Shown here in pieces: positions 7,645-35,702 of a stretch of DNA of 64,000 nt. The notes under the pieces are model-generated. The model ran no database searches, was not told where the DNA came from, and saw only the letters and a program-made list of their open reading frames with translations. The stretch's first letter is position 1. Each line of letters opens with the position of its first letter. This DNA is from a virus (lineage: Duplodnaviria > Caudoviricetes): positions 1,725 through 65,724 of the IMG/VR virus record IMGVR_UViG_3300020578_000064; one strand, 5' to 3'. Position numbers and translations under genes: made by a program.

Positions 7645-7937
7645 CAGAGGGACGCAACGAGCGGATCGTCGAGCAGAAGAGCAAGCTCGCGGAAAAAGTC
7701 CTCAAGGTGGCCGAGCAGGCACTCGGGGACATCGAGGCCACGATGGGCGAGGCGCCCATCCGCGACCTGATCAGCATCTTCAACAGCTCGATCAAGGTCC
7801 ACCGCGACCTGATGAGCGACATCGTCGCCATCCAGGAGATCGAGACCAAGGCCGAGAAGGAGCTGGCGAAGGACCGGGAGTACACCTCCAAGGTCGACGA
7901 CCTGCTCAAGAAGCTGGGCCAGGGCAAGCAGGAATGA
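7641..7937 (+). CDS. putative terminase small subunit
   Basis: Helical ~98-aa protein directly upstream of TerL with ATGA overlap; GTG start at 7641 after GGAGG. Confidence 0.5.
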   Translation: MTEGRNERIVEQKSKLAEKVLKVAEQALGDIEATMGEAPIRDLISIFNSSIKVHRDLMSDIVAIQEIETKAEKELAKDREYTSKVDDLLKKLGQGKQE

Positions 7938-9619
7938 GGCCCATCATCACCCACGCGTCGCAGCTGGAGGAGCACTCGAGCTGGCGCGTGTACAAGCGCG
8001 GCCTGCGCGAGCTCGAGCTCATGGAGGCGCCTAAGAGCGTGCTGCAGGAGTTCAGGTTCCGCGCGGCGCGCTCTTGCTTTCTGGCGTTCGCCGACATCAT
8101 GCTCGACGGCAAGCTCCAGGTCGCCGACTTCCACGAGATCATCGGGTCGGCGTTCGAGGACGTGGCCCAGCTCAGGTACCAGAGGCTGATCGTCAGCTGC
8201 GCGCCGCGATCCGGCAAGTCGATGCTCGCGCAGCTGTTCGTCGCGTGGCTCCTCGGCCACGACGAGCAGACGCAGCACATCATCGCGTCGTACGGCCAGC
8301 AGCTGTCGAACAAGTTCAACCGCGGGATCAACGGCTATCTGCGGCACAAGAACTTCGTCAGGATCTTCCCGGAGTGGTCCGGCTTCCACGCGGACTCGAA
8401 GTACGACATGAAGGGCGGCGGGTACATCCTCGCGACGTCCGTCGGCGGGGTGCTGACCGGCTTCACCGCCGGCACGCCGCACGAGGACAGCCCGGGCGTC
8501 GGCGCGATGGTGATCGACGACCCGCTGAAGGGATCGGACTCCCGCGCCGCGTTCGAGGAGCTCGAGGACTGGTGGGGCGAGCAGGCCTCCACCCGGCGCA
8601 CCAACCGCTGGGCCCAGCTGATCATCGGCACCCGGTTCGGCGAGAAGGACCTCCACGGCATCCTGATGGACGGCGACGGCCTGTGGGACCCGGAGGACAA
8701 CCCGCGCGGGTGGCGGTGGGTGAACATCGAGGCCCTCTGCGAGAACGAGGCCACGGACCTCCTCGGCAGGCGCAACGGCGAGTCGCACTGGCCCGGCAAC
8801 GGGACGTTCACGGTCGACATGCTCCTCTCGCAGAAGAGGATCATGGGCTCCGACAAGTTCTCGGCGCTCTACCAGGGCAGGCCCGCGGCGCAGGAGGGCT
8901 CGATCGTCAAGGCGGGTTGGATCAGCGTGAGGGCGCCCGGGGACTGCCCGGAGTTCGACGTCACCTACCTGTCGCTCGACACGGCGTTCTCCGAGAAGCA
9001 GAGCGCGGACGAGAGCGTGATCGCCGTGATGGGCTACTCGCGGGCCGACAAGGACAGCATCTACGTGCGCGAGATCATCAGCGGGCGGTGGGGCTTCCCT
9101 GACCTGCTGGCGATGCTCGAGCAGACCAGGAAGTACTACGGCGCGAGATTCCTCACGATCGAGCAGGCGGCCAGCGGCCAGTCGCTGATCCAGATGCTCG
9201 AGAGGGAGAGCAAGATCCACATCCACGGCTTCAAGCCGCTCAGGTCCAAGACGATACGCCTCCAGACCGTGTCGCCCCTGTGGGAGGCCGGCAGGGTGCA
9301 CCTCGTCGAGGGCGCGTGGACGCAGGACTTCATCAAGGAGCTCACGGCCTTCCCGTTCGTGCCGCACGACGACCGGACCGACGCGGTCGTCTGGGGGCTC
9401 ACGTACTACATGTTCCACCTCGACGGCGGCACCTCTGGCGACACGCTCCAGGCGATCGTCGGGGCGAGGGGCAAGTCGGCGGGCAGGGGGCACGTGACGC
9501 GGGACTTCTCCGAGCTGAAGGGCGGCAAGCGCGAGCTGCTGTCGTACGGCGAGAGGTCGCTGTACTTCGGGAAGGGCGGCAAGCGCGGCGGGCTTACGTT
9601 CGACACCGGCATGGACTAG
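7934..9619 (+). CDS. terL: terminase large subunit
   Basis: Walker A APRSGKS, Walker B MVIDDP, IIGTRF motif III, LYQGRP linker, RNase H-like SLDTA...IEQAASG...HDDRTDA. Confidence 0.92.
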   Translation: MRPIITHASQLEEHSSWRVYKRGLRELELMEAPKSVLQEFRFRAARSCFLAFADIMLDGKLQVADFHEIIGSAFEDVAQLRYQRLIVSCAPRSGKSMLAQLFVAWLLGHDEQTQHIIASYGQQLSNKFNRGINGYLRHKNFVRIFPEWSGFHADSKYDMKGGGYILATSVGGVLTGFTAGTPHEDSPGVGAMVIDDPLKGSDSRAAFEELEDWWGEQASTRRTNRWAQLIIGTRFGEKDLHGILMDGDGLWDPEDNPRGWRWVNIEALCENEATDLLGRRNGESHWPGNGTFTVDMLLSQKRIMGSDKFSALYQGRPAAQEGSIVKAGWISVRAPGDCPEFDVTYLSLDTAFSEKQSADESVIAVMGYSRADKDSIYVREIISGRWGFPDLLAMLEQTRKYYGARFLTIEQAASGQSLIQMLERESKIHIHGFKPLRSKTIRLQTVSPLWEAGRVHLVEGAWTQDFIKELTAFPFVPHDDRTDAVVWGLTYYMFHLDGGTSGDTLQAIVGARGKSAGRGHVTRDFSELKGGKRELLSYGERSLYFGKGGKRGGLTFDTGMD

Positions 9620-9660: not shown

Positions 9661-10461
9661 ATGTATGGCACAGACCAAGGGGGTGATCCGCATGATCGCC
9701 TAGAGTTCGTCCTAGTCGAATCTCGAACCTTTGTCGCGAACAACCTAATGCCAACCGCAAGAGAGAAACGCAAAGTACGGCGCCAGATGGAAGACGTCGT
9801 CCACCGCGAGCGCGGTATGGACCTCACCCCCTTCAGGGCTATGACCTGGAGGCAGGACGAGTTCTGGAACACGATGGGCAAGAACGCCGTCACGCTGGCC
9901 CACGGCCACGCCGGCACCGGGAAGACCCTCCTGGCCCTGTGGAAAGGAATGACGCTCGTCCAGCAGGGGGAGGTGGAGAGAGTGGTCTACATCCGGAGCG
10001 ATGTGGGCGTGGAATTCCAACGTGGCCGGGGCGCGCTGCCCGGCGACTTCAACGAGAAGGTGAGGCCGCTGCTCGGCCCGGTGCTCGACAACCTGCCCGT
10101 CATGATGCGCAACCAGGGCGCCGCGGACTACGTGATCTCGAAGGGGATCATCGAGCCCGTGCTGCTCGAGGACGTCCGCGGGAGGTCCTTCAACGACTGC
10201 TTCATCGTGGTCGACGAGGCGCAGAACATGCTCCCGTCCCACGTCAAGACGTGCCTGACCCGGCTGGGGCAGGAGTCGCGGATGGCGATCGTTGGGGACA
10301 CCAAGCAGTCCGACCTGGAGGTGTTCCGCCGGGACAACGGGCTGCTCGACGCCGTGTACCGCCTCAGGGACATGCGCGACGTTGGCATCGTCCAGTTCGA
10401 GAAGGAGGACATAGTGAGAAACTCGGTGATCGCGCACATCCTCGACAGATACGATGACTAG
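9661..10461 (+). CDS. phoH: PhoH family ATPase
   Basis: GHAGTGKT, GALPGD..EK, RGRSF...IVVDEAQN, LTRLG, GDTKQSD, DIVRN. Alternative start at 9748. Confidence 0.93.
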   Translation: MYGTDQGGDPHDRLEFVLVESRTFVANNLMPTAREKRKVRRQMEDVVHRERGMDLTPFRAMTWRQDEFWNTMGKNAVTLAHGHAGTGKTLLALWKGMTLVQQGEVERVVYIRSDVGVEFQRGRGALPGDFNEKVRPLLGPVLDNLPVMMRNQGAADYVISKGIIEPVLLEDVRGRSFNDCFIVVDEAQNMLPSHVKTCLTRLGQESRMAIVGDTKQSDLEVFRRDNGLLDAVYRLRDMRDVGIVQFEKEDIVRNSVIAHILDRYDD

Positions 10462-11227
10462 GGCCGACAGGTACACAACCGCGTTCGGCGACGGGTCCCG
10501 GGAGGTTCTCGGGGCCCTTTTCGACTTCGCCGCGTGCGAGAGGGCCGACGGGTCCCGCTACGGGATCGCCGACGGCAGGCAGTGCAGGAAGGGCCGCGAG
10601 GTCGACATCGAGGGGGCCGAGTGGGAGTACCTCACGAAGGGTAACTACGGGGCCGTCGAGATCGACCGCAAGCAGGGGCTGATCCGCAAGACCAACGTGC
10701 CCGGCCGCAGCTTCGGCGAGCACGAGGCCGAGCTGCAGAAGATCATGGGCGACGCGGGCCACAGCCCCAAGCTCCACAGGGCCTCCGACAGCGAGATCGT
10801 CATGGACCTGGCGCCCGGGCGGACGATCTGGAAGGACTACAGGCCGTCCGAGGGCGAGAAGGGCGTGAGGTTCAACGAGGCGCAGGCCACGGCGGCGGCG
10901 AAGGCCGTGCTGTTCCTGCACCGCAAGGGCTTCTACCACGGCGACATGCACAGCCTGCAGTGGATGGTCGACGGCGACAGGCCGATGCTGATCGACTTCG
11001 GGCTGAGCGGCCGGACGTCCGGCGACCCGAGGAGGGCGCTGCAGGACTGGACCAAGGGCGCGCAATTCATGAACCTGGACGCCGTCGGCGGCGAGGGCGG
11101 CAGGCGCGTCCGGGACTACGTCGAGCGGTACGGGGAGGCCGGGGCGTCGAAGCCGGCGAAGGACCGGCAGGCCAAGCAGGAGCAGGTCGCCAGGGAGTAC
11201 CTGGACTGGGTCGGCTCGCTCGGGTAA
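10454..11227 (+). CDS. protein kinase-like protein with N-terminal DFA-Cys module
   Basis: DFAACERADGSRYG...QCRKG, then KGNYGAV, IRK, EHEAE, HGDMHSLQ, LIDFG. Confidence 0.8.
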   Translation: MTRADRYTTAFGDGSREVLGALFDFAACERADGSRYGIADGRQCRKGREVDIEGAEWEYLTKGNYGAVEIDRKQGLIRKTNVPGRSFGEHEAELQKIMGDAGHSPKLHRASDSEIVMDLAPGRTIWKDYRPSEGEKGVRFNEAQATAAAKAVLFLHRKGFYHGDMHSLQWMVDGDRPMLIDFGLSGRTSGDPRRALQDWTKGAQFMNLDAVGGEGGRRVRDYVERYGEAGASKPAKDRQAKQEQVAREYLDWVGSLG

Positions 11228-11270
11228 ACCCTACGAGGCGGGCTCCCGTCCCGCGTTAAAGCAGACGACC

Positions 11271-12539
11271 ATGAGAAAGGATCGCTTCACCGACGAGGCG
11301 CTGCGCAACGCGCGGGCGCTCGCCGAATTAAAGATGCAGGACTCGGAGCAGTTCTCCGAGGCTTACGACTTCGCCCGCTGCCAGCGCCCGGACGGCAGCT
11401 TCTACGGCACCAGCGGCCAGTGCCGCAAGGGCACCGAGGCCGGCGCGGCGCCCCCGCGCGAGGGCACCGGCGCGCGCGGTGGTCGGGTCGCAGCCGAGAA
11501 GGCCAAGGCCGAGGGCAAGAAGGGTGTGGAGATCCGCAAGGCGCGGCGTGAGGGCACCAAGGCCGCGGTAGAGGCTGCCCGCGCGGCGGGAGGCGCCAAG
11601 ACGTCGGCCAAGAATGCTCGCGCGCGCATGCTCAAGGACGAGCTGAGCAAGATCAGGGACAGACTCAAGGGCAAGTCCCCCGAGGAGATCAACAGGGCCA
11701 TCGCCGAGGCATCCAAGCGCGCGAGCGCGCGCGCCGCGGCCGGAGAGGGCAAAGCTGCCAAGAAGGCCCCAGTCAGGGTGGGCAAGACCGGCGAGCGCGC
11801 CGAAAATGTGAGATCCAGGGCCCAGGAGGCCTACAATAAGGCGCGCGCGATCGGCAAGAGGGAGGCCGAGGCCGTCGCCAGGCTGAGGAAGGACCCGCAG
11901 AACAAGGACCTCCTCCGCCAGGTGCAGATGCTCCGTACCGAGCGGGCGAACGAGGACGCCAGGTACAACAGCCTCACCAAGAAGGCCAAGAAGCTCGAGA
12001 GGGAGCAAGGCAAGGCCCCGATCATCAAGGAACGCGCCGAGCGGACCGAGACGGCGAAGATGGGCCGCACGGCGAGCCAGCTGACGCCGAAGGAGCAGGC
12101 CGCCCGGGCCGAGCGCCAGAAGGCGAACGAGGCCAACCGCCAGGCCCAGGCGGGCGCGGCCGGTGCGGCGAGACGGGCGGGCTCTGACGCTAAGCGCGAG
12201 GAGCGCCGCCAGCGCGACAACGAGCTCCGCGGGATGATCCGCGACAAGATGGCCGACCAGAGGGGCCGCAAGGGCGAGCTCGACAGGCTCGAGCGGGCGT
12301 ACAAGGACCAGGCCAGGAAGGTCAAGGCCGAGCCCACCAAGGAGGGCAAGGCCCGCCTTAAGGAGGTCGCGCGCCAGCTCCGCGAGCGGGAGCGCTTCTT
12401 CAATCGCGGCGAGCGCGAGCTCGAGAAGATGGGCCGCGAGCGCATGCGCATCGCCCAGCAGAACGAGCGCGAGCGCATGACCCCTGCCCAGCGCGCCGAG
12501 GCGGCACGCGTCCGCAAGATCATCAAGGAGCGCGGCTGA
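11271..12539 (+). CDS. basic Arg/Lys/Ala-rich coiled-coil protein with DFA-Cys module
   Basis: FSEAYDFARCQRPDGSFYGTSGQCRKG followed by a highly charged helical region. Confidence 0.75.
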   Translation: MRKDRFTDEALRNARALAELKMQDSEQFSEAYDFARCQRPDGSFYGTSGQCRKGTEAGAAPPREGTGARGGRVAAEKAKAEGKKGVEIRKARREGTKAAVEAARAAGGAKTSAKNARARMLKDELSKIRDRLKGKSPEEINRAIAEASKRASARAAAGEGKAAKKAPVRVGKTGERAENVRSRAQEAYNKARAIGKREAEAVARLRKDPQNKDLLRQVQMLRTERANEDARYNSLTKKAKKLEREQGKAPIIKERAERTETAKMGRTASQLTPKEQAARAERQKANEANRQAQAGAAGAARRAGSDAKREERRQRDNELRGMIRDKMADQRGRKGELDRLERAYKDQARKVKAEPTKEGKARLKEVARQLRERERFFNRGERELEKMGRERMRIAQQNERERMTPAQRAEAARVRKIIKERG

Positions 12540-12540
12540 C

Positions 12541-13413
12541 ATGGCGCGAGTCCACGACAGCATCTTCGACAACTTCAGCGAGGAGGCGCTCGAGGCGCTG
12601 GACTTCGCCCGCTGCCAGCGGGCCGACGGCTCGTTCTACGGGACGTCGGGCCAGTGCCGCAAGGGCAAGGAGGCGGGCGACAAGCCGGCCGAGCAGACGA
12701 GGGCCAAGGCGACGAAGTCCGGCGGAGTGAGCAACGAGCAGGCGATGAAGCTCCGCGCCTCCCTCACCAAGCAGATCGGCGACGCCGCGAAGTCGGGCGA
12801 TCTGGGCAAGACCAACAACCTGATGCAAGCCCTCGCGGCCGTCGAAGGCCAGCTCAAGGCCAGGGGCGTCAATCTTTCCGGCGGCGGGGCAATGGCCGAC
12901 GCCAAGGCCGACCGGATGTCCGTGCTCAAAGAGCGAATCGCCGCCGCCAAGGCGTCCGGCGACAAGAAGAAGCTGAAAGATCTACGGAACGAACTCCAGG
13001 GCCTGCAACGCAACGCGAAGGTCGAGGCCGAAGCCCGGCGCACCGGCCGGACGTTCGACGACGTGGCCCGCGAGCGAGCCGCCAGGGCGGACGCCAAGAT
13101 CAAGGCACGCATCGCGGCCAGGTATCCCCGGATGTTCGCAAACAAGCCAGGGGCGGCCAAGGGCGGCGCAATGGCCGACGCCAAGGCCGGCGAGCGCGAG
13201 GTCGCCCGCGGCGAGAAGTTCATCGGCCGCGCCCGCGCCGCGATGAAGAGGCTCTCCAACGAGCGCAACGTCGCCCAGATGCGCCTGCAGATCGGCCGCG
13301 TGAACCAGATCGACGAGGCCATGAAGCGCCTCAGGAAGAAGGCCGAGCAGGTCGGCGGGCGGCTCGACGAGCTGACCGGCACCAAGGGCCAGGGCAAGTA
13401 CTACGTGAGCTGA
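12541..13413 (+). CDS. basic helical protein with DFA-Cys module
   Basis: FSEEALEALDFARCQRADGSFYGTSGQCRKG; internal GGAMADAKA duplication. Confidence 0.75.
   Translation: MARVHDSIFDNFSEEALEALDFARCQRADGSFYGTSGQCRKGKEAGDKPAEQTRAKATKSGGVSNEQAMKLRASLTKQIGDAAKSGDLGKTNNLMQALAAVEGQLKARGVNLSGGGAMADAKADRMSVLKERIAAAKASGDKKKLKDLRNELQGLQRNAKVEAEARRTGRTFDDVARERAARADAKIKARIAARYPRMFANKPGAAKGGAMADAKAGEREVARGEKFIGRARAAMKRLSNERNVAQMRLQIGRVNQIDEAMKRLRKKAEQVGGRLDELTGTKGQGKYYVS
12889..13189 (+). repeat. 22-nt direct repeat GCAATGGCCGACGCCAAGGCCG (12889-12910 and 13168-13189)
   Basis: Exact copies within one CDS. Confidence 0.7.
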
Positions 13414-13832
13414 TGAACAACTTCGGACGCATCAACCCAGAGGCCCTCGAGTGGGCCGAGAACCCGGAGTGGGCCGAGAAGTACGGGGACATCGACTTCC
13501 GCCCGCCCCAGTCCGTCGCGGACGCGGCGGCCCGCGGGCTCGAGCTGCGCAAGAAGACCGGCCGCGGCGGCTTCAGCACGAAGCAGGCGGCCGAGGAGGG
13601 CGTCGGCTCCGGCGTCCAGCGCGCCGCGTCGCTGAAGAACCGCCAGAGCCTGTCCCCCGCTACGATAGGGCGCATGGTGAGCTTTTTCGCCCGCCACTCC
13701 GCGTACAAGAAGAACCACACGATGAGCCCCCCGTCCAACAGCCTCATCTCCTGGCTGCTCTGGGGCGGCGACCCGGGCAGGGCCTGGGCCGAGAAGGTCA
13801 AGGCGCAGATGGACCGTGCGGATGAAAAATGA
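13413..13832 (+). CDS. conserved phage protein (type seen near head-morphogenesis genes)
   Basis: True start is ATG 13413 (TGATG overlap). PPQSV..AA.RGLE...LS..TI.RM.SFFARH...ISWLLWGGD.G.AWA motif. Confidence 0.7.
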   Translation: MNNFGRINPEALEWAENPEWAEKYGDIDFRPPQSVADAAARGLELRKKTGRGGFSTKQAAEEGVGSGVQRAASLKNRQSLSPATIGRMVSFFARHSAYKKNHTMSPPSNSLISWLLWGGDPGRAWAEKVKAQMDRADEK

Positions 13833-15037
13833 AGCGCACCCACCTAATCTTTTCGGAGGACGCCCTCGCGGTGCTCGACTTCGCGCGGTGCCAGCGTGCG
13901 GACGGCTCGTACTACGGGACCGGCGGCCAGTGCAGGAAGGGTAAGGAGGTCGGCCCGCGCGAGATGAAGATCCTCAGGGACGCCGCCGCCAAGGGCAACA
14001 AGAAGGCCCAGATAGCTCTCGAGGTGGTCGAGGGGCGGAAGAGCAAGGAGGACGCCATCAAGGAGCTCCGGGCCATCAACGCCAAGCCGGCCGCGGCGCC
14101 AGCCGCCCCCAAGGAGGAGGCGCCCAAGAAGGAGGAGCCGGCGAAGCCCGCCAAGATCGAACTGTCCATGGACGGCCTCAAGGGCGCGCCGGACGGCTCG
14201 GAGGTACAGGTCGGCGACGATACCTACGTCAAGAAGGACGGGAAATACTTCTGGAAGAAGGCCGACGGGACGCTCGGCGGCCTCGACTACAGCCCCAAGG
14301 AGATCTACGAGGAGGCGGCCCTGAAGGGCGTGGCCGTCAAGCCGGGAGGGGGCGACCCTAGGTCGCTGGCCGGCCGGTACGAGAGCGCCAAGACCCTGGG
14401 CGAGGGCGGCTTCGCGCAGGTCCGCCGCACGGAGGACGGCACCGTCATCAAGAAGGGCGAGCTCGGGCCCGAGGAGGTCGCGGCCCAGAAGAAGCTCGAG
14501 GGCGTGGACGGCGTCCCCAAGATCAAGGGCAACGAGGGCAACCTCATCGAGATGGAACTCGCCAGGGGCAGGGCGATCATGGATACCGACCTGCTGTATG
14601 ACGGCCCGAGCAAGGCGTCAGCCAAGGCGGCGGACGAGCTGGTCCGGCTGAACCGCGACATGCACAAGCGCGGCGTGAGCCACGGCGACCAGCACGACGG
14701 CAACTTCTTCTACGACAGCGCGACGGGCAAGGGCGGCCTGATCGACTTCGGTATGGCCAAGACGTCGCCGGTGTCGGCGCTGCAGGAGGGCCTCACCCTC
14801 GGCTCGAGCGGGGACTTCAAGAGCGGCAGCATGCTGTCGGACCTGGCCGGCCCGAGGTCCGGCAGCGGGCCCAGGTCCAACGCCGGCCCGATGCTCGCCA
14901 GGTTCGAGCAGAATCAGGAGGCCGTCGCCAAGCAGATGAAGGCCGACGGCTTCGACCCGGCCCAGCCGCTCGACCGCCAGGGCATCTCGCGCTCGCAGGC
15001 CGAAAAGTACATCGACAGCCTCTACGAGGGAGTGTGA
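13829..15037 (+). CDS. protein kinase-like protein with DFA-Cys module
   Basis: DFARCQRADGSYYGTGGQCRKG; LGEGGFAQV, VIKKG, HGDQHDGN, LIDFG. Confidence 0.82.
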   Translation: MKRTHLIFSEDALAVLDFARCQRADGSYYGTGGQCRKGKEVGPREMKILRDAAAKGNKKAQIALEVVEGRKSKEDAIKELRAINAKPAAAPAAPKEEAPKKEEPAKPAKIELSMDGLKGAPDGSEVQVGDDTYVKKDGKYFWKKADGTLGGLDYSPKEIYEEAALKGVAVKPGGGDPRSLAGRYESAKTLGEGGFAQVRRTEDGTVIKKGELGPEEVAAQKKLEGVDGVPKIKGNEGNLIEMELARGRAIMDTDLLYDGPSKASAKAADELVRLNRDMHKRGVSHGDQHDGNFFYDSATGKGGLIDFGMAKTSPVSALQEGLTLGSSGDFKSGSMLSDLAGPRSGSGPRSNAGPMLARFEQNQEAVAKQMKADGFDPAQPLDRQGISRSQAEKYIDSLYEGV

Positions 15038-15038
15038 C

Positions 15039-15191
15039 ATGAGCAACTACGTCAAGGTGATGGAGCAGTACAAGATCGCTCGCCGCGCCGGGCGCGACGA
15101 CGACGCCAGGGCGCTGCTCGAGAAGGCCCGCAAGATGGTAAAAGCAAAGAAAGTGTCCGAAGACGAGATGATCGCGGGGGCCTACATCTGA
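15039..15191 (+). CDS. 50-aa helical protein following a kinase (not in ORF track)
   Basis: MSNYVKVMEQYKIARRAGRDDDARALLEKARKMVKAKKVSEDEMIAGAYI; fills the gap exactly, TGATG coupling; paralog at 18934. Confidence 0.8.
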   Translation: MSNYVKVMEQYKIARRAGRDDDARALLEKARKMVKAKKVSEDEMIAGAYI

Positions 15192-16531
15192 TGGCGCGCC
15201 TGAAGCAGCACGGCGGCTGGAACCCGAGCCTCGAGACGAGAGCCAGGGGGGTACTCGCGCTCCGCTACTCCGAGCCGGCCGGCTCGCTCGAGTTCGCCAA
15301 GGCCGGGACAGGTATCCCGTGCGGCGAGAGCTTCATCTCGTCCGCTAAGGAGTGCAGGCTCGATGCCGGCGAGCGCAAGAGGCTGATCGACAGCCTCGGC
15401 GCCTCCGGCGAGACCAGGAAGAAGCTCGAGGAGCTCGACGACAAGCAGCTCAGCCGCGTGGCCGAGGGCGTCAAGAAGAAGCTCAGCGTCGAGCAGGCCG
15501 TGAGGGCATCCAACACCGTCGACACGCTATCCGCGACGGTCTCGGGCGGCAGGCAGGCCGCCGGCGTGACCCTGCAGGACCCGGGCGAGGCCGCGAAGTA
15601 CGTCAAGTTCTACGAGAGCGGCGGCGACCGGACCTACAGGCCGCCCCACGACACCTCTGAGGCCGAGGTCAATTTTGTCATCGACAGGATGAAGGCCGAG
15701 AAGACCTGGGGCAAGGTGAGCGGCAAGCTCGACGGCAAGGGGACCCCCGAGGCCGGCATGCGCGCCGAGGCGTGGGGCGACCAGCCCAAGGACGCCCGCG
15801 CCAAGGCCGTCCTCAAGTCTCTCATGGACAACGACTTCAAGGACGTCAACGGCAAGTTCCTGCCCTGGAGCACAGGCATGCAGCTCGACCACAGGCTGGC
15901 GGGCTCGATGGGCGGCAAGGACTCGCCCAACAACTGGATCTGGGTGAGCACCGCCACGAACCAGACGAAGGGTAACATCGAGGCCGGCGTCCGCGCCAAG
16001 GGCCTCACGGGTAAGGCGGCGGAGGACTACCTCAACACGCAGCTGCTCAAGAAGCTCAGGGAGAACGCCGCGATGTCAGCGGACGAGGTGGCCAGGGTCA
16101 AGGGCGCCGGCAGCGCGGCGGCGGCCGAAAAGGCCCAGCGCCGCCAGGCGCTCAAGGAGAACATGCCGCTGATGACGCAGAAGCAGATCGGCGACATGCT
16201 GGCCACGGCGAAGATGGGCGAGATCAAGGACATGCTGCAGGCGTCGGTCCAGGGCAGCGCCGGGGCCGCGTGGGTCAAGAAGGGCGGGTCGAGGGGCCAG
16301 ACGGCGTACCCGACCGTGGGCGAGGGCAGGGCGCTCGTCCGCATGCGCTGGGGCTTCAAGCTCGAGGAGTCCGACCTCAAGAGCATCGGCCAGGCGATCG
16401 CGAGCTCCAAGAACGACTCGCGCCCGCGGTCGGAGATCCTGAAGGACGTGGAGGCCCGCTTCGGCCCCACCAGCGGCCTGACGGCCGCGGAGCGGGTGGC
16501 GATCCTGAACGCGGCCGGAGGGGAGGGCTGA
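15191..16531 (+). CDS. HNH-nuclease-domain protein with variant Cys module
   Basis: EFA...CGESFISSAKECR at the N-terminus; QLDHRLAGSMGGKDSPNNWIWVSTATNQTKG is an HNH-type motif. Confidence 0.72.
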   Translation: MARLKQHGGWNPSLETRARGVLALRYSEPAGSLEFAKAGTGIPCGESFISSAKECRLDAGERKRLIDSLGASGETRKKLEELDDKQLSRVAEGVKKKLSVEQAVRASNTVDTLSATVSGGRQAAGVTLQDPGEAAKYVKFYESGGDRTYRPPHDTSEAEVNFVIDRMKAEKTWGKVSGKLDGKGTPEAGMRAEAWGDQPKDARAKAVLKSLMDNDFKDVNGKFLPWSTGMQLDHRLAGSMGGKDSPNNWIWVSTATNQTKGNIEAGVRAKGLTGKAAEDYLNTQLLKKLRENAAMSADEVARVKGAGSAAAAEKAQRRQALKENMPLMTQKQIGDMLATAKMGEIKDMLQASVQGSAGAAWVKKGGSRGQTAYPTVGEGRALVRMRWGFKLEESDLKSIGQAIASSKNDSRPRSEILKDVEARFGPTSGLTAAERVAILNAAGGEG

Positions 16532-16532
16532 C

Positions 16533-18893
16533 ATGGACAAGCTAACGCAGCACGGCGGCTTCGACCCGTCGCTCGAGAGCGAGGTGCGCGACGCGCTGCT
16601 CGCCGAGTTCACGGAGGGCGGCGGCGCCGGGGACTTCGACTTCGCGCAGGTCTGCCAGCGGCCCGACGGCAGCGTCTACGGGACGCAGGGCCAGTGCCGC
16701 AAGGGCACGCCCATCTCCTACCGCCCGGGCGACCGCCAGGGCGACGTGTACAACAAGGGCCGCGCGGCCGGCATGAGGGTCGAGTCGATCCTCGACGAGA
16801 ACAAACGCCTCCGCGAGGAGAAGGGTCTCAAGATGGTCAAGGGCCCAGAGGCTGTACAGTCGCTGGTCCGCAGGCTGAACGAGCGGATGGGCGTGACGCA
16901 GAGGCCCGCCGACGTCAAGGGCGTGAAGACCCCGGAGCAGGCGGCAAAGGCCATCAAGGGCGCCGAGCCCAAGAAGGAGAAGCTCACCGGCGTCGTCAAC
17001 GAGAAGTTCCTCAACGTTCGCAACGCGCGCGAACTCCAGAAGATCCTCGACGAGCGGCAGCTCAACGCGGGCCAGAGGAAGAAGATCGAGGAGGCCCTGG
17101 CCGCGAGGGCCAGCGAGGTCGGGCGCGTCCGCGGCATGGGCAACGAAACGCTGGACCGCCGCGTCCGCGGGCTCGAGCAGGAGCGCTACCTGGCCGGGCC
17201 GTATTATGATGTTGTTCGCAAAGTGCTGGAGCGCGCCAAACTCGGCCGCGACCCGGACCAGATCAAGCGGGCCCAGGAGGCCTTCGATAGGGTACGGGCC
17301 GAGGACATGTCCCGCTTCAGGAAGGATCGCGAGGCCAGGGGCGAGCAGATGGCGCGCCGCAAGGGTGAGGCAGCCGCGCCGGTCAAGGAGACCAAGAAGC
17401 CCGCGAAGGCGGCCCAGGAAAAGCCCTCGATGCAGGTCAACAAGCGGTTCCTGAAGAAGGAGACCACGCAGAAGCTGCAGGAGTACCTGGACAACCGCAA
17501 GCTCTACGCCTACCAGCGGAAGGCCATCGAGGCCGAGCTGAAACGGCGCGAGCAGGGCGGCAGGGGCGCCGAGCCCAAACCGGCCGCGAAGCCGCGCGAC
17601 GCGCAGGCGCGCAAGGCGGCCATCGAGGATGTCAACAGGCAGATTGAGGCAATCAGACGCAGGCGCAACGAGCCGGCGTACCAGAAGCCGGACCAGAAGG
17701 CGTTCCTCGACAGCCTCGAGAAGGGCCTGATCCGCAAGCGCATGGACATCGAGGCCGGCGTCGCGCCAGTCAAGGCGGGGGCGAAGGACGCCAGCACCGC
17801 CGTCCTGATGAAGCGCGCGGCGCAGCCGGGGTCGGCTGGCAGGGAGGCCCGGCGCGAGCTTGGTCAGAAGCTACGGGAGAAGAATGCAAAGCTCGCCGCC
17901 CAGCCCGAGATAGCCTCGGCCAAGCCAAAGCAAATCAACCAGAAGTTCCTCGCTCAGCCGACCGACAAGCTGCAGGCGGTGCTCCGCCGCGGGGACCTCG
18001 GCGCGGCCCAGCGCCGGAAGATCGAGGAGGAGCTCGGCGGCCGCGGGGTGACACCCGCCGGCCCCGTGAAGGTCACTGCTGGTATGACGACCGCCACAGC
18101 CGTGAAGGCCGGCTGGAAGCTCGACCGGGCGGTAAAAGACTACGATCCGATCGCTACCTACGGCCAGACCAACAATCGGCTGCTGGCCAAAGGAGCGTTC
18201 GGCGCTGCCTACCGCACCGACGGCCCGCCGCCCGGCGTCATCAAGCAGGGCAAGATCGGAGAGCACGAGGCCGAGGTGTGGCAGAAGCTCCAGAGCACCG
18301 GCCGCGTCCCCGAGTTCCACGGGGCAGTCGTCAGTCCGAACATGCGCGTTGTCGGCGCCGGCTATGGCGGCCACGTGAAGGAGGGCCAGGGCTACCTCGG
18401 CATCGGCGAGGCCAAGGGCGTCCCGGTCGGCCAGTACAACCCCCGCTCGGCCGCCGAGAAGAACAAGGTCCTCGAGGAGTACATCCGGACCCGCCGCGAC
18501 ATCCACCTGGCCGGCGTCGCCCACAACGACATGCACGGCAACAACGTCTTCTACGACAAGGCGACCGGCCGCATGCAGGCGATCGACTTCGGCCTGGCGC
18601 AGCCCAGCTACAAGGCCGCCCTCATGGAGGCCTTCGGCACGAACCAGGGCGACTGGCAGTCCGAGCGGTTCATCGGCCGCTACAAGGCGAGCGGCGGCGA
18701 GGCCCCGGCCTACTACCGCTTCCGCCGCAACCAGGAGAGGGTCAACCGCGCGCTCGAGGAGCTCGACATCGACACCAACCGCATGCGCGGCATGGGCATC
18801 CGGAACAAGCCGGAGCACATCGACCGGGTCCTCGACGGCATGTCGGAGACGGCCGCCAAAGCGTACGTCGAGATGCTGTACGACGGCGTCTAG
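16533..18893 (+). CDS. large protein: DFA-Cys module, three helical repeats, C-terminal protein kinase
   Basis: DFAQVCQRPDGSVYGTQGQCRKG; LAKGAFGAAY, VIKQG, EHEAE, HNDMHGNN, IDFG. Confidence 0.82.
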   Translation: MDKLTQHGGFDPSLESEVRDALLAEFTEGGGAGDFDFAQVCQRPDGSVYGTQGQCRKGTPISYRPGDRQGDVYNKGRAAGMRVESILDENKRLREEKGLKMVKGPEAVQSLVRRLNERMGVTQRPADVKGVKTPEQAAKAIKGAEPKKEKLTGVVNEKFLNVRNARELQKILDERQLNAGQRKKIEEALAARASEVGRVRGMGNETLDRRVRGLEQERYLAGPYYDVVRKVLERAKLGRDPDQIKRAQEAFDRVRAEDMSRFRKDREARGEQMARRKGEAAAPVKETKKPAKAAQEKPSMQVNKRFLKKETTQKLQEYLDNRKLYAYQRKAIEAELKRREQGGRGAEPKPAAKPRDAQARKAAIEDVNRQIEAIRRRRNEPAYQKPDQKAFLDSLEKGLIRKRMDIEAGVAPVKAGAKDASTAVLMKRAAQPGSAGREARRELGQKLREKNAKLAAQPEIASAKPKQINQKFLAQPTDKLQAVLRRGDLGAAQRRKIEEELGGRGVTPAGPVKVTAGMTTATAVKAGWKLDRAVKDYDPIATYGQTNNRLLAKGAFGAAYRTDGPPPGVIKQGKIGEHEAEVWQKLQSTGRVPEFHGAVVSPNMRVVGAGYGGHVKEGQGYLGIGEAKGVPVGQYNPRSAAEKNKVLEEYIRTRRDIHLAGVAHNDMHGNNVFYDKATGRMQAIDFGLAQPSYKAALMEAFGTNQGDWQSERFIGRYKASGGEAPAYYRFRRNQERVNRALEELDIDTNRMRGMGIRNKPEHIDRVLDGMSETAAKAYVEMLYDGV

Positions 18894-18933
18894 CCCGCAT
18901 AATACCACGAAGAGCACCGACACCACACACACC

Positions 18934-19089
18934 ATGGCCAGCAAGTACGTGGAGCTGATGACCAAGCGCAAGGCCGCCCTGTTCAAGGGCGACGAGGCGG
19001 AGGCCGAGCGGCTCCTCACACTAGCCGAGCAGCTCGCAGAGCGCGGCAAGGTATCCGACGACGAATTTTTGGCGGCAGCCTACCTATGA
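18934..19089 (+). CDS. 51-aa helical protein following a kinase (not in ORF track)
   Basis: MASKYVELMTKRKAALFKGDEAEAERLLTLAEQLAERGKVSDDEFLAAAYL; ATGA overlap with the next gene; paralog of 15039. Confidence 0.8.
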   Translation: MASKYVELMTKRKAALFKGDEAEAERLLTLAEQLAERGKVSDDEFLAAAYL

Positions 19090-19709
19090 CAGACAGAGCA
19101 CCAGAGCAGCGCGTCGTCGACTACCTGGAGTCGAACGGCTATAGGCCGGACGCGATCATCCGCTACCTCGAGGCGATGGTCGAGAAGGAGTGGGCGCAGA
19201 GCGACTTCGCCGAGTGCGGGCCCGGGGAGAAGATGACCTTCGGCGTCTGCCGCAAGATCGGGGAGGCCCCGGCCGCGCAGCCCGCCCAGCAGGGCGCGGC
19301 GCCGTCGCAGCCCCAGGCGCAGCAGCCCGGGCAGCCGGCGGCCGCAGGCCAGCAGCCGAAGCCGAAGGAGCAGCCCAAGTCCCCCATGGAGGAGAAGCTC
19401 GAGAAGGCTGCCAAGTCGCAGGGCTCCGACCCGACCAACAACAAGAAGGTCGTGATCGACGGTAAGGCATACGGCTGGGCGATCCAGGGTGGCAAGCCGA
19501 TCATGGTCGAGTGGGGCTCCGTGGCCGGCGAGAAGAAGGTAGGGCCTAAGCCCGCGAAGCCAAAACGCCAGGGGCGCGGCGGCGGGTCCCGCGCCGGCGG
19601 CGGCGGCAACGCCAGCCGGATCGAGGGCCTGGAGAGGGCGCTCGAGGGCCAGGTCAACGAGGCCGGGCGCCAGGCTATCATGGACCAGATCAAGGAGCTG
19701 GGCGGGTAA
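19086..19709 (+). CDS. hypothetical protein with degenerate DFA-Cys module
   Basis: SDFAECGPGEKMTFGVCRK followed by a Q/P/A-rich linker. Confidence 0.7.
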   Translation: MTDRAPEQRVVDYLESNGYRPDAIIRYLEAMVEKEWAQSDFAECGPGEKMTFGVCRKIGEAPAAQPAQQGAAPSQPQAQQPGQPAAAGQQPKPKEQPKSPMEEKLEKAAKSQGSDPTNNKKVVIDGKAYGWAIQGGKPIMVEWGSVAGEKKVGPKPAKPKRQGRGGGSRAGGGGNASRIEGLERALEGQVNEAGRQAIMDQIKELGG

Positions 19710-19739
19710 GACACGTGGGTACCAACCCACGGAAACAAC

Positions 19740-20516
19740 ATGTCCGGATTCGGAAGCTTCTCCCAGGAGGCCTACGAGCAGCTCCAGCAGGCCTACGCCG
19801 CCCAGCTGCAGAAGGCCGAGGAGACGGAGGAGCAGGGCGTCAAGGTCGGCTCCGACACGCTCGGCGTCGAGACCGCACCGGTGCGGTCCGCGTGGCTCGA
19901 CAAGACCGGCCTCTGGCAGTACCCCGACGGGCGCGGCGAGAGGCAGGACGTCGAGCAGAAGCAGCAGGACCTGCTGGCCGCGCTCCGCGACAGCGAGGGC
20001 AACCTCCCGGCCGACGACGACGAACTCGAGCTGTCGGACATGTCCGACGAGGAGCTCGACGCCATGATCGACGAGGTGCTCGCCGAGATCGACGGCGAGG
20101 GGGAAGCCGACCCCGGCGATGACGGGGACGACGACGCCGACCCGGAGTTTGACGCGCTGGTCCAGCGGATGCTCGAGGGCATCGACGAGGACACGACCGA
20201 CGAGGAGATCGACGCGATGCTCGACGAGCTGCTCGGCCCCGCGGACGACGAGGAAGAAGAGGACGAAAGCGAGGAACCCGATGGCGACGGCGAGCCGGAG
20301 CCCGAGCCCGACGCCGACGACATCGCGGCCAGGATCGCCGAGCTCAAGGCCGAGCTGGCGGCGCTGACCGAAGACGGCGAGGAAGAGGAGGAGGAGGAGG
20401 AGGAGGACGAGGACTACGCGCCCGAGGAAACCCAGGGCGAAGAGGAGGAAACCGAGCCCGACGTAACCGAAGACGAAACCGAGGAGGAGGACCCCTCTGA
20501 TGATGAACCTAACTGA
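19740..20516 (+). CDS. extremely acidic protein (possible scaffold/core protein)
   Basis: D/E-dominated, with one short coiled coil (IAARIAELKAELAAL). Confidence 0.65.
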   Translation: MSGFGSFSQEAYEQLQQAYAAQLQKAEETEEQGVKVGSDTLGVETAPVRSAWLDKTGLWQYPDGRGERQDVEQKQQDLLAALRDSEGNLPADDDELELSDMSDEELDAMIDEVLAEIDGEGEADPGDDGDDDADPEFDALVQRMLEGIDEDTTDEEIDAMLDELLGPADDEEEEDESEEPDGDGEPEPEPDADDIAARIAELKAELAALTEDGEEEEEEEEEDEDYAPEETQGEEEETEPDVTEDETEEEDPSDDEPN

Positions 20517-21975: not shown

Positions 21976-22524
21976 ATGCCAGTTAAGAAAGGAAAAGGCT
22001 GCGTAGCCGACGTGATGCGCGAGTGGAAGGCGGGGACGCTGCACTCGGGCGAGAAGGGAAAGGTCGTCAAGGACCAGAAGCAAGCGGTCGCCATCGCCCT
22101 GTCGATGTGCGGCGCCAGCAAGCAGCAGGCCAAGTCGTACGAGGAGTACGCGCTAGGCCTCGTCACCGAGATGAAGGACTCCTACGCCGAGAGGGGCTGC
22201 AAGCGCCAGGCGATGGCGATCGGGTACCCGACGCCCACGTTCTCGGAGGAGGACACGCGCATGGCCTTCGCCCAGCTGCGCAAGCTGCAGGCGGACACCT
22301 CGCACCTCATCATGATGATGGAGTCCGAGATGATGGCCGGGCGCATGCCGGAGATCGAGGCGTGGATGGAGGCCAAGATCACCCTGGCCGCCGACTACAT
22401 GTCCGCCGTGCACGACTACGCGATGTACGGCCCGGGTCTGGAGGTCGAGGAGGAGGACGAAGAGGAGGAGCCGGAGGGCTACTCCGCGTTCAACAGGTTC
22501 GGGTACGCCGAGGGAAAGGGCTGA
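21976..22524 (+). CDS. DUF6496-like protein
   Basis: VMREWKAGTLHSG..VVKDQKQAVAIALS; second motif IEAWMEAKITLAADYMSAVHDY. Confidence 0.65.
   Translation: MPVKKGKGCVADVMREWKAGTLHSGEKGKVVKDQKQAVAIALSMCGASKQQAKSYEEYALGLVTEMKDSYAERGCKRQAMAIGYPTPTFSEEDTRMAFAQLRKLQADTSHLIMMMESEMMAGRMPEIEAWMEAKITLAADYMSAVHDYAMYGPGLEVEEEDEEEEPEGYSAFNRFGYAEGKG
22512..22518 (+). other. putative -1 ribosomal frameshift heptamer G GGA AAG
   Basis: In-frame X XXY YYZ one sense codon before the TGA of 21976-22524; the -1 frame is open to 22979. Confidence 0.6.
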
Positions 22525-34052: not shown

Positions 34053-34152
34053 ATGATGAGACTCCTAGAGTGGCTGCTCCGCGGCCACGTGCACTCGGTT
34101 CTACCTCCGGTGCAAGAAGTGCGGCTGGGTCCGCAAAATTGACTGCAAATGA
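34053..34152 (+). pseudogene. frameshifted small Zn-finger-like gene
   Basis: MMRLLEWLLRGHVH in one frame; RFYLRCKKCGWVRKIDCK* in another, ending in an ATGA overlap with the halogenase. Confidence 0.4.
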
Positions 34153-35702
34153 CGACAGAACTCAAGAGGATAGTCATCGTCGGCGGCGGGTCCGCAGGTT
34201 GGATGACCGCGGCAACGCTGCTGCGTTCGTGCCCAACGGTAGAGATTACGGTCGTTGAGAGCCCCGACGTGCCTGTGATCGGCGTCGGCGAGAGCACGCT
34301 GGGGCAGTTCAAGCTCTGGGCGCGGTACGTCGGCATCGAAGAGCGCGAATTCGTCCCGGCAACGGACGCGTCGTTCAAGCTCAGCATCAGGTTCACGGAC
34401 TTCAACGGGGTCGGGACCGGCTCCTTCCACTACCCGTTCGGGACGCCAGCGATCGAGCGCGGCACCTACGAGCCCAACGACTGGTTCGTGGCCGACGCTC
34501 TCGGCGCTGGTGGCAACCCGTCCTACGCCAGGGCGATGTTCCCGGCCACGGCCCTCGCCGAGCGCAACCGGATCAGCGGCGGGAGCGGCGGCGACCTCGC
34601 GCCGTACGACTACAATCTGGACGCAGCTTACCACTTCGACGCCGTGCGATTCGGCGCGTGGCTCGGGCAGAAGCACTGCGTCCCCGAGGGTGTAAGGCGC
34701 ATCGAGGGCACTGTAAAAGGTCACAGGCTCGGCGGGAACGGCATCGATGCGCTGATCATGGACGACGGCTCGGAGATCGCCGCAGACCTATATGTTGATT
34801 GCACCGGCTGGCGCAGCCTTCTGATCGGTGGGGCGATGTCCGAGCCCTTTAAGTCCTACCGGGGCATCCTCCCTAACAACAAGGCGTGGGCCGCGAGACT
34901 ACCGTACACCGACAAGGCCGCGCAATTGGAGCCATTCACGGACTGCACCGCGCTCGGCAACGGCTGGGTGTGGAACACGCCACTGTGGTCCCGGATCGGG
35001 TCGGGTTATGTGTACAGCGACGGGTACGTCTCTGATGACCAGGCCCTCACCGAGTTCATAGATCATCTGCGCGCAAAAGGCATCGAGCGGCCTGAGGACC
35101 TCAGCTTCCGCAAGCTCGGCATGAGGATCGGCATCCACGAGCGAACGTGGGTCAAGAATGTGGTCGCCATAGGGCTATCGGCTGGGTTCATCGAGCCCCT
35201 GGAGAGCAACGGGCTGCTGACGATCCACGAGTTCGCGCTGCTGCTCGGCGAGACGCTCGCGCGCAGATCGTTCAACCAGTGGGACCGCGACGCGTACAAC
35301 CAGAGAGTCTCGCAGCTGTTCGACGAGTTCGCGGCCTTCGTCTCCTTCCACTACGCGCTCAGCTCCAGGGACGACACGGAGTACTGGCGCGACGCGACCG
35401 AGCGCACGAGGCTCTCGGCCGGGCTCGATCTGGGCCGCGCCTCGTTCTCGAGCTACGCGGACTCGAGGCTGTTCTCGCGACGCTGGAACGAGTCGGCCGG
35501 CGGGATCTGCGTCTTCGCAGGCATGGGGCACAACCACCTACCGCGGCCGTTCCTCGAGCTAGAGGGCACGCGGACCGGCCTGGACTTCGAGAGCCTGGCC
35601 CGCAGGAGCTCGGCCTTCGCGTCCGATCGCTATAATCGCTGGGCGCGGGCCGCCGAGCGGTCGCCGCGCCTGATCGACTTCCTGAGAACCTACCACGAGT
35701 AA
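34149..35702 (+). CDS. flavin-dependent (tryptophan halogenase family) halogenase
   Basis: IVGGGSAGWMTA, IGVGEST, ASFKLSI (catalytic Lys position), AYHFDA, GWVWNTP, FIEPLESNG. Confidence 0.9.
   Translation: MTTELKRIVIVGGGSAGWMTAATLLRSCPTVEITVVESPDVPVIGVGESTLGQFKLWARYVGIEEREFVPATDASFKLSIRFTDFNGVGTGSFHYPFGTPAIERGTYEPNDWFVADALGAGGNPSYARAMFPATALAERNRISGGSGGDLAPYDYNLDAAYHFDAVRFGAWLGQKHCVPEGVRRIEGTVKGHRLGGNGIDALIMDDGSEIAADLYVDCTGWRSLLIGGAMSEPFKSYRGILPNNKAWAARLPYTDKAAQLEPFTDCTALGNGWVWNTPLWSRIGSGYVYSDGYVSDDQALTEFIDHLRAKGIERPEDLSFRKLGMRIGIHERTWVKNVVAIGLSAGFIEPLESNGLLTIHEFALLLGETLARRSFNQWDRDAYNQRVSQLFDEFAAFVSFHYALSSRDDTEYWRDATERTRLSAGLDLGRASFSSYADSRLFSRRWNESAGGICVFAGMGHNHLPRPFLELEGTRTGLDFESLARRSSAFASDRYNRWARAAERSPRLIDFLRTYHE

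Follow-up and report, generated by a model that had tools for sequence, protein, structure and literature searches.

The window analyzed here is a 64-kb stretch (64,000 nucleotides; positions 1,725 to 65,724) of the 65.7-kb virus contig IMGVR_UViG_3300020578_000064, for which CheckV estimates a completeness of 31%. Between positions 10454 and 19709 it carries an array of genes, named here by their first position, five of which (10454, 11271, 12541, 13829, and 16533) start with a module of approximately 35 residues containing two cysteines (type A). The reading favored here, to which we give a probability of about 0.6, is that this module serves as a tag by which a polymorphic set of proteins is loaded into the head for injection. 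The genes of the array are as follows.

10454..11227, plus strand: type A module (residues 15 to 50, nucleotides 10496 to 10603; hidden Markov model [HMM] E value, 1.5e-19) and a small protein-kinase-like domain of Bud32/RIO size.
11271..12539, plus strand: type A module (residues 24 to 58, nucleotides 11340 to 11444; HMM E value, 1.4e-22) and a very basic tail rich in K, R, A, and E.
12541..13413, plus strand: type A module (residues 12 to 46, nucleotides 12574 to 12678; HMM E value, 4.4e-23) and a basic tail; isoelectric point (pI), 10.2.
13413..13832, plus strand: conserved untagged protein of 139 residues within the array (phrog_2859; E value, 2.9e-11).
13829..15037, plus strand: type A module (residues 8 to 42, nucleotides 13850 to 13954; HMM E value, 4.8e-23), linker, and APH/ABC1/RIO-like kinase.
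15039..15191, plus strand: small protein of 50 residues ending in AGAYI, a paralog of 18934..19089 (BLASTP E value, 1e-9).
15191..16531, plus strand: QHGGW leader, Cys-pair hairpin PCGESFISSAKEC ("type C"), and weak HNH motif (HNH_4; E value, 0.011).
16533..18893, plus strand: QHGGF leader, type A module (residues 26 to 62, nucleotides 16608 to 16718; HMM E value, 3.4e-20), basic repeat-rich linker of approximately 480 residues, and kinase.
18934..19089, plus strand: small protein of 51 residues ending in AAAYL, with 43% identity (E value, 8e-5) to S-CREM2 gp13.
19086..19709, plus strand: protein of 207 residues with a Cys-pair hairpin (C-x10-C, FGVCRK), the pair being kept in the orthologs at loci L003, L018, and L022.

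A six-frame regular-expression scan of the window found the full motif in 11271, 12541, 13829, and 16533; the copy in 10454, in which the hairpin is two residues longer, was caught only by the subpattern DFA..C, and DFAEC was found in 19086. Outside the array, the scan returned only a spurious G.C[RK][KR]G match on the minus strand at position 43360, flanked by stop codons. In an alignment of the five modules, 16 of the 35 columns were invariant, and when the module HMM was run on the open reading frames (ORFs) of the window, the five genes were recovered with E values of 1.5e-19 to 4.4e-23, the next ORF having an E value of 3.2. The five genes with an N-terminal Cys module that were listed in the first-pass annotation were thus borne out. 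In the module, an acidic amphipathic helix (FSE..LE.LDF) precedes a hairpin of 13 residues that is closed by the two Cys (C-QRPDGS.YGT.GQ-C-RKG), and the consensus of the wider family reads [FY]SE..LE.LDF[AT]RCQRPDGS.YGT.GQCRKG, often followed by.[EP].G[AP]KE. The five DNA copies differ at synonymous sites, for example, TCG versus AGC for Ser and CGG, CGC, or CGT for Arg; therefore, conservation is on the level of the peptide and does not reflect recent gene conversion, and, as judged from these substitutions, selection is acting on the module peptide.

The same annotation had counted 15191 and 19086 as divergent versions of the module, which held in part. Both carry real, conserved Cys-pair hairpins, of other kinds and invisible to the module profile, but they are not statistical members of the family, as a larger HMM built from 265 unique module segments found no match in 15191 and returned 19086 at an E value of 4.2 (Z = 1000). 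The ortholog of 15191 at L003 has a canonical module behind the same QHGGW leader, and three orthologs of 19086 retain a C-x10-C hairpin ending in FGVCRK. The leader L.QHGG[WF].PSLE, which had been described as common to 15191 and 16533, is present in both translations.

An HMM search with the module, as had been suggested, was run, and the family, its C-terminal domains, and its gene context were catalogued in phage and metagenome proteins. Using the five-module profile, 929 clusters were found at E values of ≤1e-3, and 227 at ≤1e-10, among 1.84 billion representatives of clusters at 50% identity. Among the best 150 family members, 126 have one module and 24 have two, and in 121 of the single-module proteins the module begins no later than residue 40. 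Behind it lie K/A/P-rich tails (median K+R, 21.5%) or enzymes; most of the best 150 have no Pfam family, and the matches obtained were to Pkinase (n = 10), APH (n = 8), ABC1 (n = 7), ADPrib_exo_Tox (n = 5), ART (n = 1), CTP_transf_like (n = 1), and DUF6496 (n = 3), with further ADP-ribosyltransferase (ART) and cytidylyltransferase fusions (L016 and L014) and weak DUF3626 fusions in IMG/VR loci. All 109 homologs in a set of 5.8 billion proteins are metagenomic and either unnamed or "hypothetical." In cultured phages the module was found only in S-CBWM1, in gp165, with a basic tail, and 185,579 prokaryote species yielded two module loci, one on the contig of a metagenome-assembled genome and one a weak chromosomal match. 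Pfam and PHROGs hold no model for the module and its motif strings appear in no paper of the literature searched, in agreement with the earlier statement that this is not a described system.

Within IMG/VR, 22 loci hold the module, L008 being the same phage as the window. The module genes directly follow terS, TerL, and PhoH in L003 to L008, L015, L018, L020, and L021, and at the array loci the same acidic protein and fibre genes come next downstream as in the window. Arrays range from 1 to approximately 9 genes with variable content, and some genes are mosaic, such as L003:7360-7968, which matches both ends of 11271 without its middle. In a 149.9-kb relative with terminal repeats (G001), all 6 module copies lie in one island at 92.7 to 97.3 kb, and the head genes encode a Mu-type portal (PF06074; 225 bits), a 704-residue phrog_976 protease, and a phrog_1005 capsid protein. 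Loci L006 and L007 (IMGVR_UViG_3300033604_000031; 40,250 bp) are the same 16-kb region occurring twice in opposite orientation with an identical ORF map, representing either a long inverted repeat or an assembly artifact.

A four-Cys motif (type B), [KR]C.KGKSCG[SA][AT]C[IV]x6C, starts the APH-like kinase of S-CBWM1 and gp106, the product of the gene after PhoH in that phage, and extending the ORFs to start codons farther upstream reveals it in the RIO-like and ChoK-like kinases as well. The starts annotated in the reference (NC_048106) cut off the motif in the RIO-like (locus 21792) and ChoK-like (locus 5953; fourth Cys) genes, and the true starts probably lie upstream (L001:21702-22652 and L002:5896-6768). 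In IMG/VR, the four-Cys motif heads 43 distinct ORFs at 51 loci; in 34 of these ORFs it starts no later than residue 60. These genes also occur in arrays, e.g., four adjacent genes in L055. Fusions are to kinase (7 of 30) and HNH (2 of 30) domains and also to LPD1, LRAT, DnaJ, and peptidase domains. A tblastn search of the phage collection with a 46-residue type B segment gave no match; as it missed S-CBWM1 despite the motif in that phage, the query was too short for that database. A homolog search in which residues 1 to 40 of the APH-like kinase from S-CBWM1 were the query returned only that kinase.

Among orthologs, one motif takes the place of another. The type A module is present in 19 of 20 relatives of the 10454 kinase, with the four-Cys motif at the same alignment position in the L014 ortholog; the L018 ortholog of the 16533 kinase starts with a hairpin of the 15191 type, and the HNH ortholog in L003 has type A where 15191 has another hairpin. 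Three unrelated peptides, alike only in being N-terminal and in having a loop closed by Cys and a basic flank, therefore appear to be interchangeable on one cargo. Four-Cys variants are also found inside large proteins of up to 1,473 residues at L019 (IMGVR_UViG_3300016467_000772), L061, L067 to L069, L075, and L082, which contain two or three internal copies of KRKC.TGY[SA]CG..CIS..KECR, each after a helix R.DAL..R.DAL. One of these proteins has LPD1, and they look like polyvalent proteins built from tagged units.

The downstream parts of the array proteins, each of which has a single recognizable domain in Pfam, had been described as three kinase folds, an HNH motif, and very basic regions. 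Three kinase-like domains and two very basic tails were recovered, while the HNH assignment is weak and below the cutoff. The catalytic loop and DFG motifs of the kinases read HGDMHSLQ/IDFG in 10454, HGDQHDGN/IDFG in 13829, and HNDMHGNN/IDFG in 16533. The 13829 kinase scores above the curated Pfam cutoffs (APH, 27.3 versus 23.2 bits; ABC1, 26.3 versus 22.9 bits), and the matches of 10454 and 16533 lie below them. The 10454 product shares 41% identity (E value, 7e-43) with S-TIM5 gp208, its residues H162, D164, D181, and G183 are invariant across 21 aligned sequences, and 4 of its 19 homologs are named Bud32 by JGI. In its AlphaFold model (predicted template modeling score, 0.74), the kinase core has a predicted local distance difference test (pLDDT) of 77 to 98 outside a loop at residues 124 to 137; residues 1 to 46 are mostly below 50, and the tag is a low-confidence helix and hairpin not packed on the core. 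Foldseek returned at least 500 PDB matches to the model at E values of ≤0.001, the 50 listed all being protein kinases (template modeling scores, 0.38 to 0.50), and the predicted structure indicates a bilobal kinase fold. The 16533 product matches the S-CREM2 gp14 kinase over 281 residues (E value, 1e-13), reaching the C-terminal LYDG.

The 11271 product has a pI of 10.7, a K+R content of 27%, and no Pfam or PHROG family, and by its composition it would be an analogue of phage internal proteins. Using residues 1 to 60 of the 12541 product, an ESM Atlas search gave a best score of 0.75 to unnamed viral clusters and was uninformative. In 15191, the HNH_4 match reaches 16.2 bits against a cutoff of 22; the residues DH...N...N are present, the protein aligns weakly with the HNH region of S-CBWM1 gp106 (E value, 0.003), and the L003 ortholog shares 40% identity with it over 480 residues (E value, 2e-96). 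A relation of 15191 to the four-Cys HNH protein of L020 was considered and rejected (E value, 0.15). The untagged protein encoded at 13413 to 13832, whose ATG overlaps the TGA of the preceding gene, is far better conserved than its tagged neighbors, its counterparts at this position in L003 and L004 being 96% and 78% identical, respectively; it may act as an adaptor for the tags or as their structural partner.

The seven array proteins with Cys motifs contain 14 Cys in 2,810 residues, all of them in the motifs, the sole Cys of both 15191 and 19086 being residues 44 and 55. At the rate of the other 43 genes of the window (0.70%), 19.5 Cys would be expected outside the motifs and none was found [P(0) = 3e-9]. 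Cys makes up 0.22% of the fibres, tape measure, and Hoc-like protein of the window (13 of 6,041 residues) and 1.28% of eight enzymes (48 of 3,762). Across the family, 36 Cys were counted in 32,370 residues outside the modules, with none in 130 of 150 members; the only Cys in the APH-, ChoK-, and RIO-like kinases of S-CBWM1 are the four of the motif, and S-CREM2 gp12 (869 residues), the S-CRM01 kinase (821 residues), and S-TIM5 gp208 have no Cys at all. We infer that such avoidance of Cys fits proteins that exist outside cells and have to pass a narrow channel. When modeled alone (70 residues; 62-row alignment), the module had a mean pLDDT of 54 and was not confidently folded, as would be the case if it needed a partner, a metal, or a disulfide in order to fold. 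A complex prediction of the module with the major capsid protein and the C-terminal 434 residues of the G001 protease/scaffold gave a score of 0.13 (mark, 0.32), a result that counts neither for nor against binding.

Several proteins of cultured cyanophages link these genes to virions. According to the introduction of PMC10665884, which cites Xu 2018, APH-, ChoK-, and Rio2-like kinases were reported in S-CBWM1 virions, and all three start with the four-Cys motif. That paper also places kinases in S-CRM01 and S-TIM5 virions and NMNAT-like proteins in the virions of several cyanophages, and its Table 3 lists ORF12 (nuclease), ORF13 (small), ORF14 (kinase), and ORF15 in the S-CREM2 virion proteome. 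The products of 16533 and 18934 are homologs of S-CREM2 ORF14 (E value, 1e-13) and ORF13 (E value, 8e-5), respectively, and the gene order, kinase followed by small protein, is the same in the window and S-CREM2. The 15039 product likewise belongs to the S-CREM2 gp13 family. The capsid-targeting sequence (CTS) of T4 is given as MKTYQEFIAE (bioRxiv 10.1101/2021.01.19.427310). The homologs in T4-like phages (L028, S-CREM2; L026, S-CRM01) start with MKDLHSFLTE, VKRFDAFLTE, MKKLDQFLTE, and MISFDQFLSE. The N-terminal peptides of S-CREM2 gp12 to gp14 and S-CRM01 g129 and g130, proteins of T4-like cluster C cyanophages detected in virions, resemble the T4 CTS in F-[LM]-[TSA]-E, gp12 having FASFMAEA near its start. 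S-CREM2 gp15 and S-CRM01 g131 start with MNFSEF and have a two-Cys hairpin, C-x12-C. The same cargo appears, from these N termini, to bear a T4-type tag where the head is of the T4 type and a Cys tag where the head has a Mu-type portal, as a head-specific loading signal predicts. The two small paralogs of the window (15039 to 15191 and 18934 to 19089) each follow a kinase gene, and they are shortened homologs of the 79-residue S-CREM2 gp13 and S-CRM01 g129, lacking the CTS-like leader of the latter two.

Under the loading-tag reading, a docking tag would load its carrier into the procapsid of S-CBWM1-like myoviruses with a Mu-type portal, and a fast-changing cargo would be carried inside the head and reach the host together with the DNA. 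That cargo would comprise, in the window, three protein-kinase-like enzymes, two very basic proteins similar to the internal proteins of T4, and an HNH-like nuclease, to which the relatives would add ADP-ribosyltransferases and an NMNAT-like cytidylyltransferase. The fused domains (kinase, ART, and NMNAT-like) are of classes reported in virions, which fits a loading tag; T4 Alt is one example (PMC9503650), and kinases and NMNAT-like proteins of cyanophages are others (PMC10665884). The tagged proteins would be packaged and ejected; the tag would bind a scaffold, capsid, or portal component, its Cys pair would either close a short-range disulfide within virions or contribute half of a shared metal site, and it may be cut off at a nearby G-x-E or A-K-E, which is kept as a lead. 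The capsid-loading and ejection tag proposed in the first-pass annotation is supported in part and only indirectly, being consistent with all of the indirect tests, namely, the fused domains, the tag swap, the homologs and analogously tagged kinases reported in virions of cultured relatives, the Cys depletion, and the disordered tag beside a folded kinase. Also in its favor are the N-terminal position of most modules, the place of the arrays behind the packaging genes, the parallel four-Cys family, and the near restriction of the module to phages.

Several observations weigh against it. The type A proteins are linked to virions via homologs and analogously tagged kinases of relatives, the report on the S-CBWM1 kinases is second-hand, from the introduction of PMC10665884, and the S-CREM2 authors state in that paper that abundant regulatory proteins might contaminate virion preparations. 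The virion-cited kinases of S-TIM5 (if gp208 is meant), S-CREM2, and S-CRM01 have no Cys tag, and such a tag is therefore not generally required; 15191 was considered as a homolog of the "Cas9/HNH" virion protein gp12 of S-CREM2, and homology was not found (E value, 0.12). The resemblance to the T4 CTS was judged by eye, without a statistical test. No homology between types A and B was detectable using hhalign (probability, 2%), so common descent is not claimed and their equivalence is one of position and context only. Some of the Cys depletion may come from low-complexity K/A/E tails. Finally, the second, internal module in 24 of 150 proteins is unlike a strictly N-terminal signal and suggests instead a docking domain that works at any position. 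A broader proposal is more tentative: Cys-stapled peptides (two-Cys type A, four-Cys type B, and lesser hairpins) could form a general plug-and-play cargo-loading code of Mu-type-portal heads. Any tagged protein would then dock to a prohead component, perhaps through a shared metal site or a virion disulfide, and be injected, and arrays of kinase, ADP-ribosyltransferase, nuclease, NAD-metabolism, and histone-like proteins could be swapped between phages as host-takeover or counter-defense cassettes.

The main rival takes the module for a small metal- or redox-dependent interaction motif in the infected cell, unrelated to head loading, that would bring effectors to a host target (nucleoid, RNA polymerase, or ribosome) or dimerize them. 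The two Cys at the hairpin base with their R/K flanks could make half of a Zn site or a redox switch, the basic tails could bind nucleic acid, the internal second modules are as expected of a position-independent domain, and the low pLDDT of the module alone is as expected of a motif needing a ligand. We nevertheless consider this explanation doubtful, as it leaves unexplained the Cys-free remainder, a trait common to virion proteins, the position of the array beside packaging genes, and the CTS-like N termini of orthologs that, according to PMC10665884, were found in the virions of T4-like cyanophages. A host-targeting domain would moreover be expected in cellular proteins, and the module is nearly absent from the prokaryote species searched.

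It is unlikely that the module is instead a propeptide keeping enzymes inactive, or an ejection or translocation signal, with loading by another part of the protein, an explanation that overlaps the loading-tag reading. T4-type prohead proteases cleave after Glu, and 130 of 172 modules have [AGS]-x-E no more than 24 residues past their second Cys, most often at +5 or +10; however, E is common in K/E-rich sequences and the site may be due to chance, and the G001 protease is of the phrog_976 type accompanying a Mu-type portal, not of the T4 gp21 type. A close Cys pair in an otherwise Cys-free protein is a pattern tolerated in unfolded passage through narrow channels, as in autotransporters. Many carriers have nonenzymatic basic tails needing no inhibition. 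Highly improbable is the idea that the shared N terminus is a conserved 5' homology arm of a duplicated family, serving cassette swapping and encoding a functionless peptide. Array gene number and content do vary among close relatives, and mosaic genes such as L003:7360-7968 exist. Against this, the 16 invariant residues despite synonymous differences point to selection on the peptide and leave little DNA identity for recombination, and the alignment of the five DNA copies already suggests a low ratio of nonsynonymous to synonymous substitutions and saturated synonymous sites. The motif also persists over all 929 clusters, and a nonhomologous Cys motif replaces the module at the same position.

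The array is embedded in a block running from terS to approximately 22.5 kb that is co-oriented and tightly packed, in a window of 62 to 70% GC with nearly all genes on the plus strand. It is bordered by the following genes.

7934..9619, plus strand: large terminase, the upstream anchor of the array (phrog_38, E value of 6.8e-82; Terminase_6C; 55% identity to S-CBWM1 TerL).
9661..10461, plus strand: PhoH-like ATPase (PF02562; E value, 7e-54), its 3' end overlapping the start of the first array gene.
19740..20516, plus strand: extremely acidic protein bordering the array (40% D+E; pI, 4.1).

Along the window lie tail fibres, the small and large terminases, PhoH, the tagged array, further fibres, two halogenase-like proteins, a tape measure, a primase, and a ribonucleotide reductase, and no portal or capsid gene was found in the window contig by Pfam and PHROG profile scans. 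The closest cultured phage is the Synechococcus myovirus S-CBWM1 (139 kb), and a megablast search of positions 10000 to 20000 against the phage collection gave no nucleotide match. The cyanobacterial host stated in the first-pass annotation was not established; such a host is plausible, the sole basis being the 55% identity of the two TerL proteins. Orthologs of the acidic protein adjoin arrays in L003, L004, L018, and L021; beside the basic array it could serve the basic proteins as a counter-ion or chaperone, or it could mimic DNA. The gene at 21976 to 22524 encodes an N-terminal DUF6496 domain (E value, 5.4e-7), which is also found behind the module in 3 of 150 family members, and its homologs adjoin module genes in L013 and L014. 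Two tryptophan-halogenase-like genes at 34149 to 35702 and 45688 to 47151 (phrog_2928; E values, 5.6e-131 and 5.8e-96) are unusual phage cargo.

Late expression of the array had been proposed from its position and from GGGTAA sites, and this was not substantiated. Between positions 7000 and 23500, a scan for sigma-70-type promoters found 1 versus 0.9 expected from shuffled sequences, and a scan for terminators found 17 versus 12.5 ± 3.8, neither being above chance. GGGTAA is enriched in the window (23 copies versus 7.9 ± 2.6 expected; 21 of the 23 on the plus strand), including sites at 2298, 7245, 9625, 11222, 19704, 22998, 49785, 59999, and 60067, yet nothing ties it to late transcription. 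Approximately nine copies lie at gene ends or in gaps 30 to 40 nucleotides before a start codon, with the longer likeness CGGGTAAGAC, and others are in-frame Gly-Lys/Asn codons; GGGTAA could be a phage promoter or a processing site.

How phages choose the proteins carried in their heads is little understood beyond the T4 CTS and MuF fusions, and the candidate tag described here comprises over 900 sequence clusters and is restricted to uncultured relatives of a single cultured cyanophage. If the loading-tag reading is true, it would explain the recurrent kinases and NMNAT-like enzymes of cyanophage virion proteomes, provide a simple sequence rule for predicting such effectors from metagenomic data (proteins whose only Cys are those of an N-terminal hairpin), and offer a handle for packaging foreign proteins; if the broader code were true, the principle of the T4 CTS would have been invented a second time, independently. 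Corrected starts are also proposed for two reference genes of S-CBWM1, and as this phage is in culture (host, Synechococcus sp. CBW1002), the loading idea is directly testable there.

Of the known systems, the T4 CTS with internal proteins IPI to IPIII and Alt is similar in being a short N-terminal tag on unrelated proteins (bioRxiv 10.1101/2021.01.19.427310 and PMC9503650), its cargo of highly basic proteins and a host-modifying enzyme being carried in the head and entering with the DNA. The T4-like cyanophage homologs of the window kinases start with CTS-like peptides. However, the CTS has approximately 10 residues and no Cys, whereas the module has approximately 35, forms a Cys-closed hairpin, and bears no sequence likeness to it; the module also occurs in Mu-type-portal phages, is sometimes internal or doubled, and heads whole arrays of 5 to 9 genes. 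No CTS-like N terminus of approximately 10 residues was found among the array proteins of the window, only in the S-CREM2 and S-CRM01 homologs, and in place of a T4-type head (gp20 portal, gp21 protease, and gp22 scaffold), G001 has a Mu-type portal and a phrog_976 protease.

MuF polymorphic toxins of temperate phages likewise join a conserved N-terminal virion part to a variable C-terminal toxin or enzyme (PMC9503650 and PMC5512222), and variable C-terminal domains (kinase, ART, CTP_transf, and HNH) are found here behind one module. Drawn in the first-pass annotation, this analogy proved poor: the MuF domain (PF04233) was absent at E values of ≤0.1 from both records scanned, the window contig (G000) and the 149.9-kb relative, and from the array proteins in Pfam scans, and MuF is a folded domain of approximately 110 residues beside the portal, unlike a 35-residue peptide on several genes beside the terminase. 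Polyvalent proteins of phages and conjugative elements (PMC5512222, Iyer et al. 2017) likewise contain kinase, ART, nuclease, and peptidase domains for which delivery along with the DNA has been proposed, and their loci are cassette-like with small ORFs; a relative with the four-Cys motif has LPD1, a domain associated with them. They have 2 to 15 domains per polypeptide, whereas here each effector has one gene and its own tag, and no multidomain polypeptide or LPD domain was found by Pfam in the window proteins, LPD1 occurring only in relatives with the four-Cys motif. The idea that the four-Cys motif is described in PMC5512222 proved wrong, as the main text of that paper contains no instance of "cysteine," "Zn-ribbon," "CxC," or "disulfide."

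The window kinases are also homologous to virion kinases of cyanophages (S-CBWM1, S-CRM01, S-TIM5, and S-CREM2), with E values of 7e-43 to gp208 and 1e-13 to gp14; the passages of these reports that were covered name the kinases but describe no common N-terminal motif, arrays, or polymorphism. Encapsulin cargo-loading peptides are short and disordered and suffice to dock varied cargo inside an HK97-fold shell; they are usually C-terminal, have no Cys, and belong to bacterial nanocompartments, and the likeness to the module is one of general description only. A tag with variable cargo in the head is already known from T4 and MuF fusions, and what is new here is the tags themselves, their interchangeability, the arrays, and the Cys-free rule.

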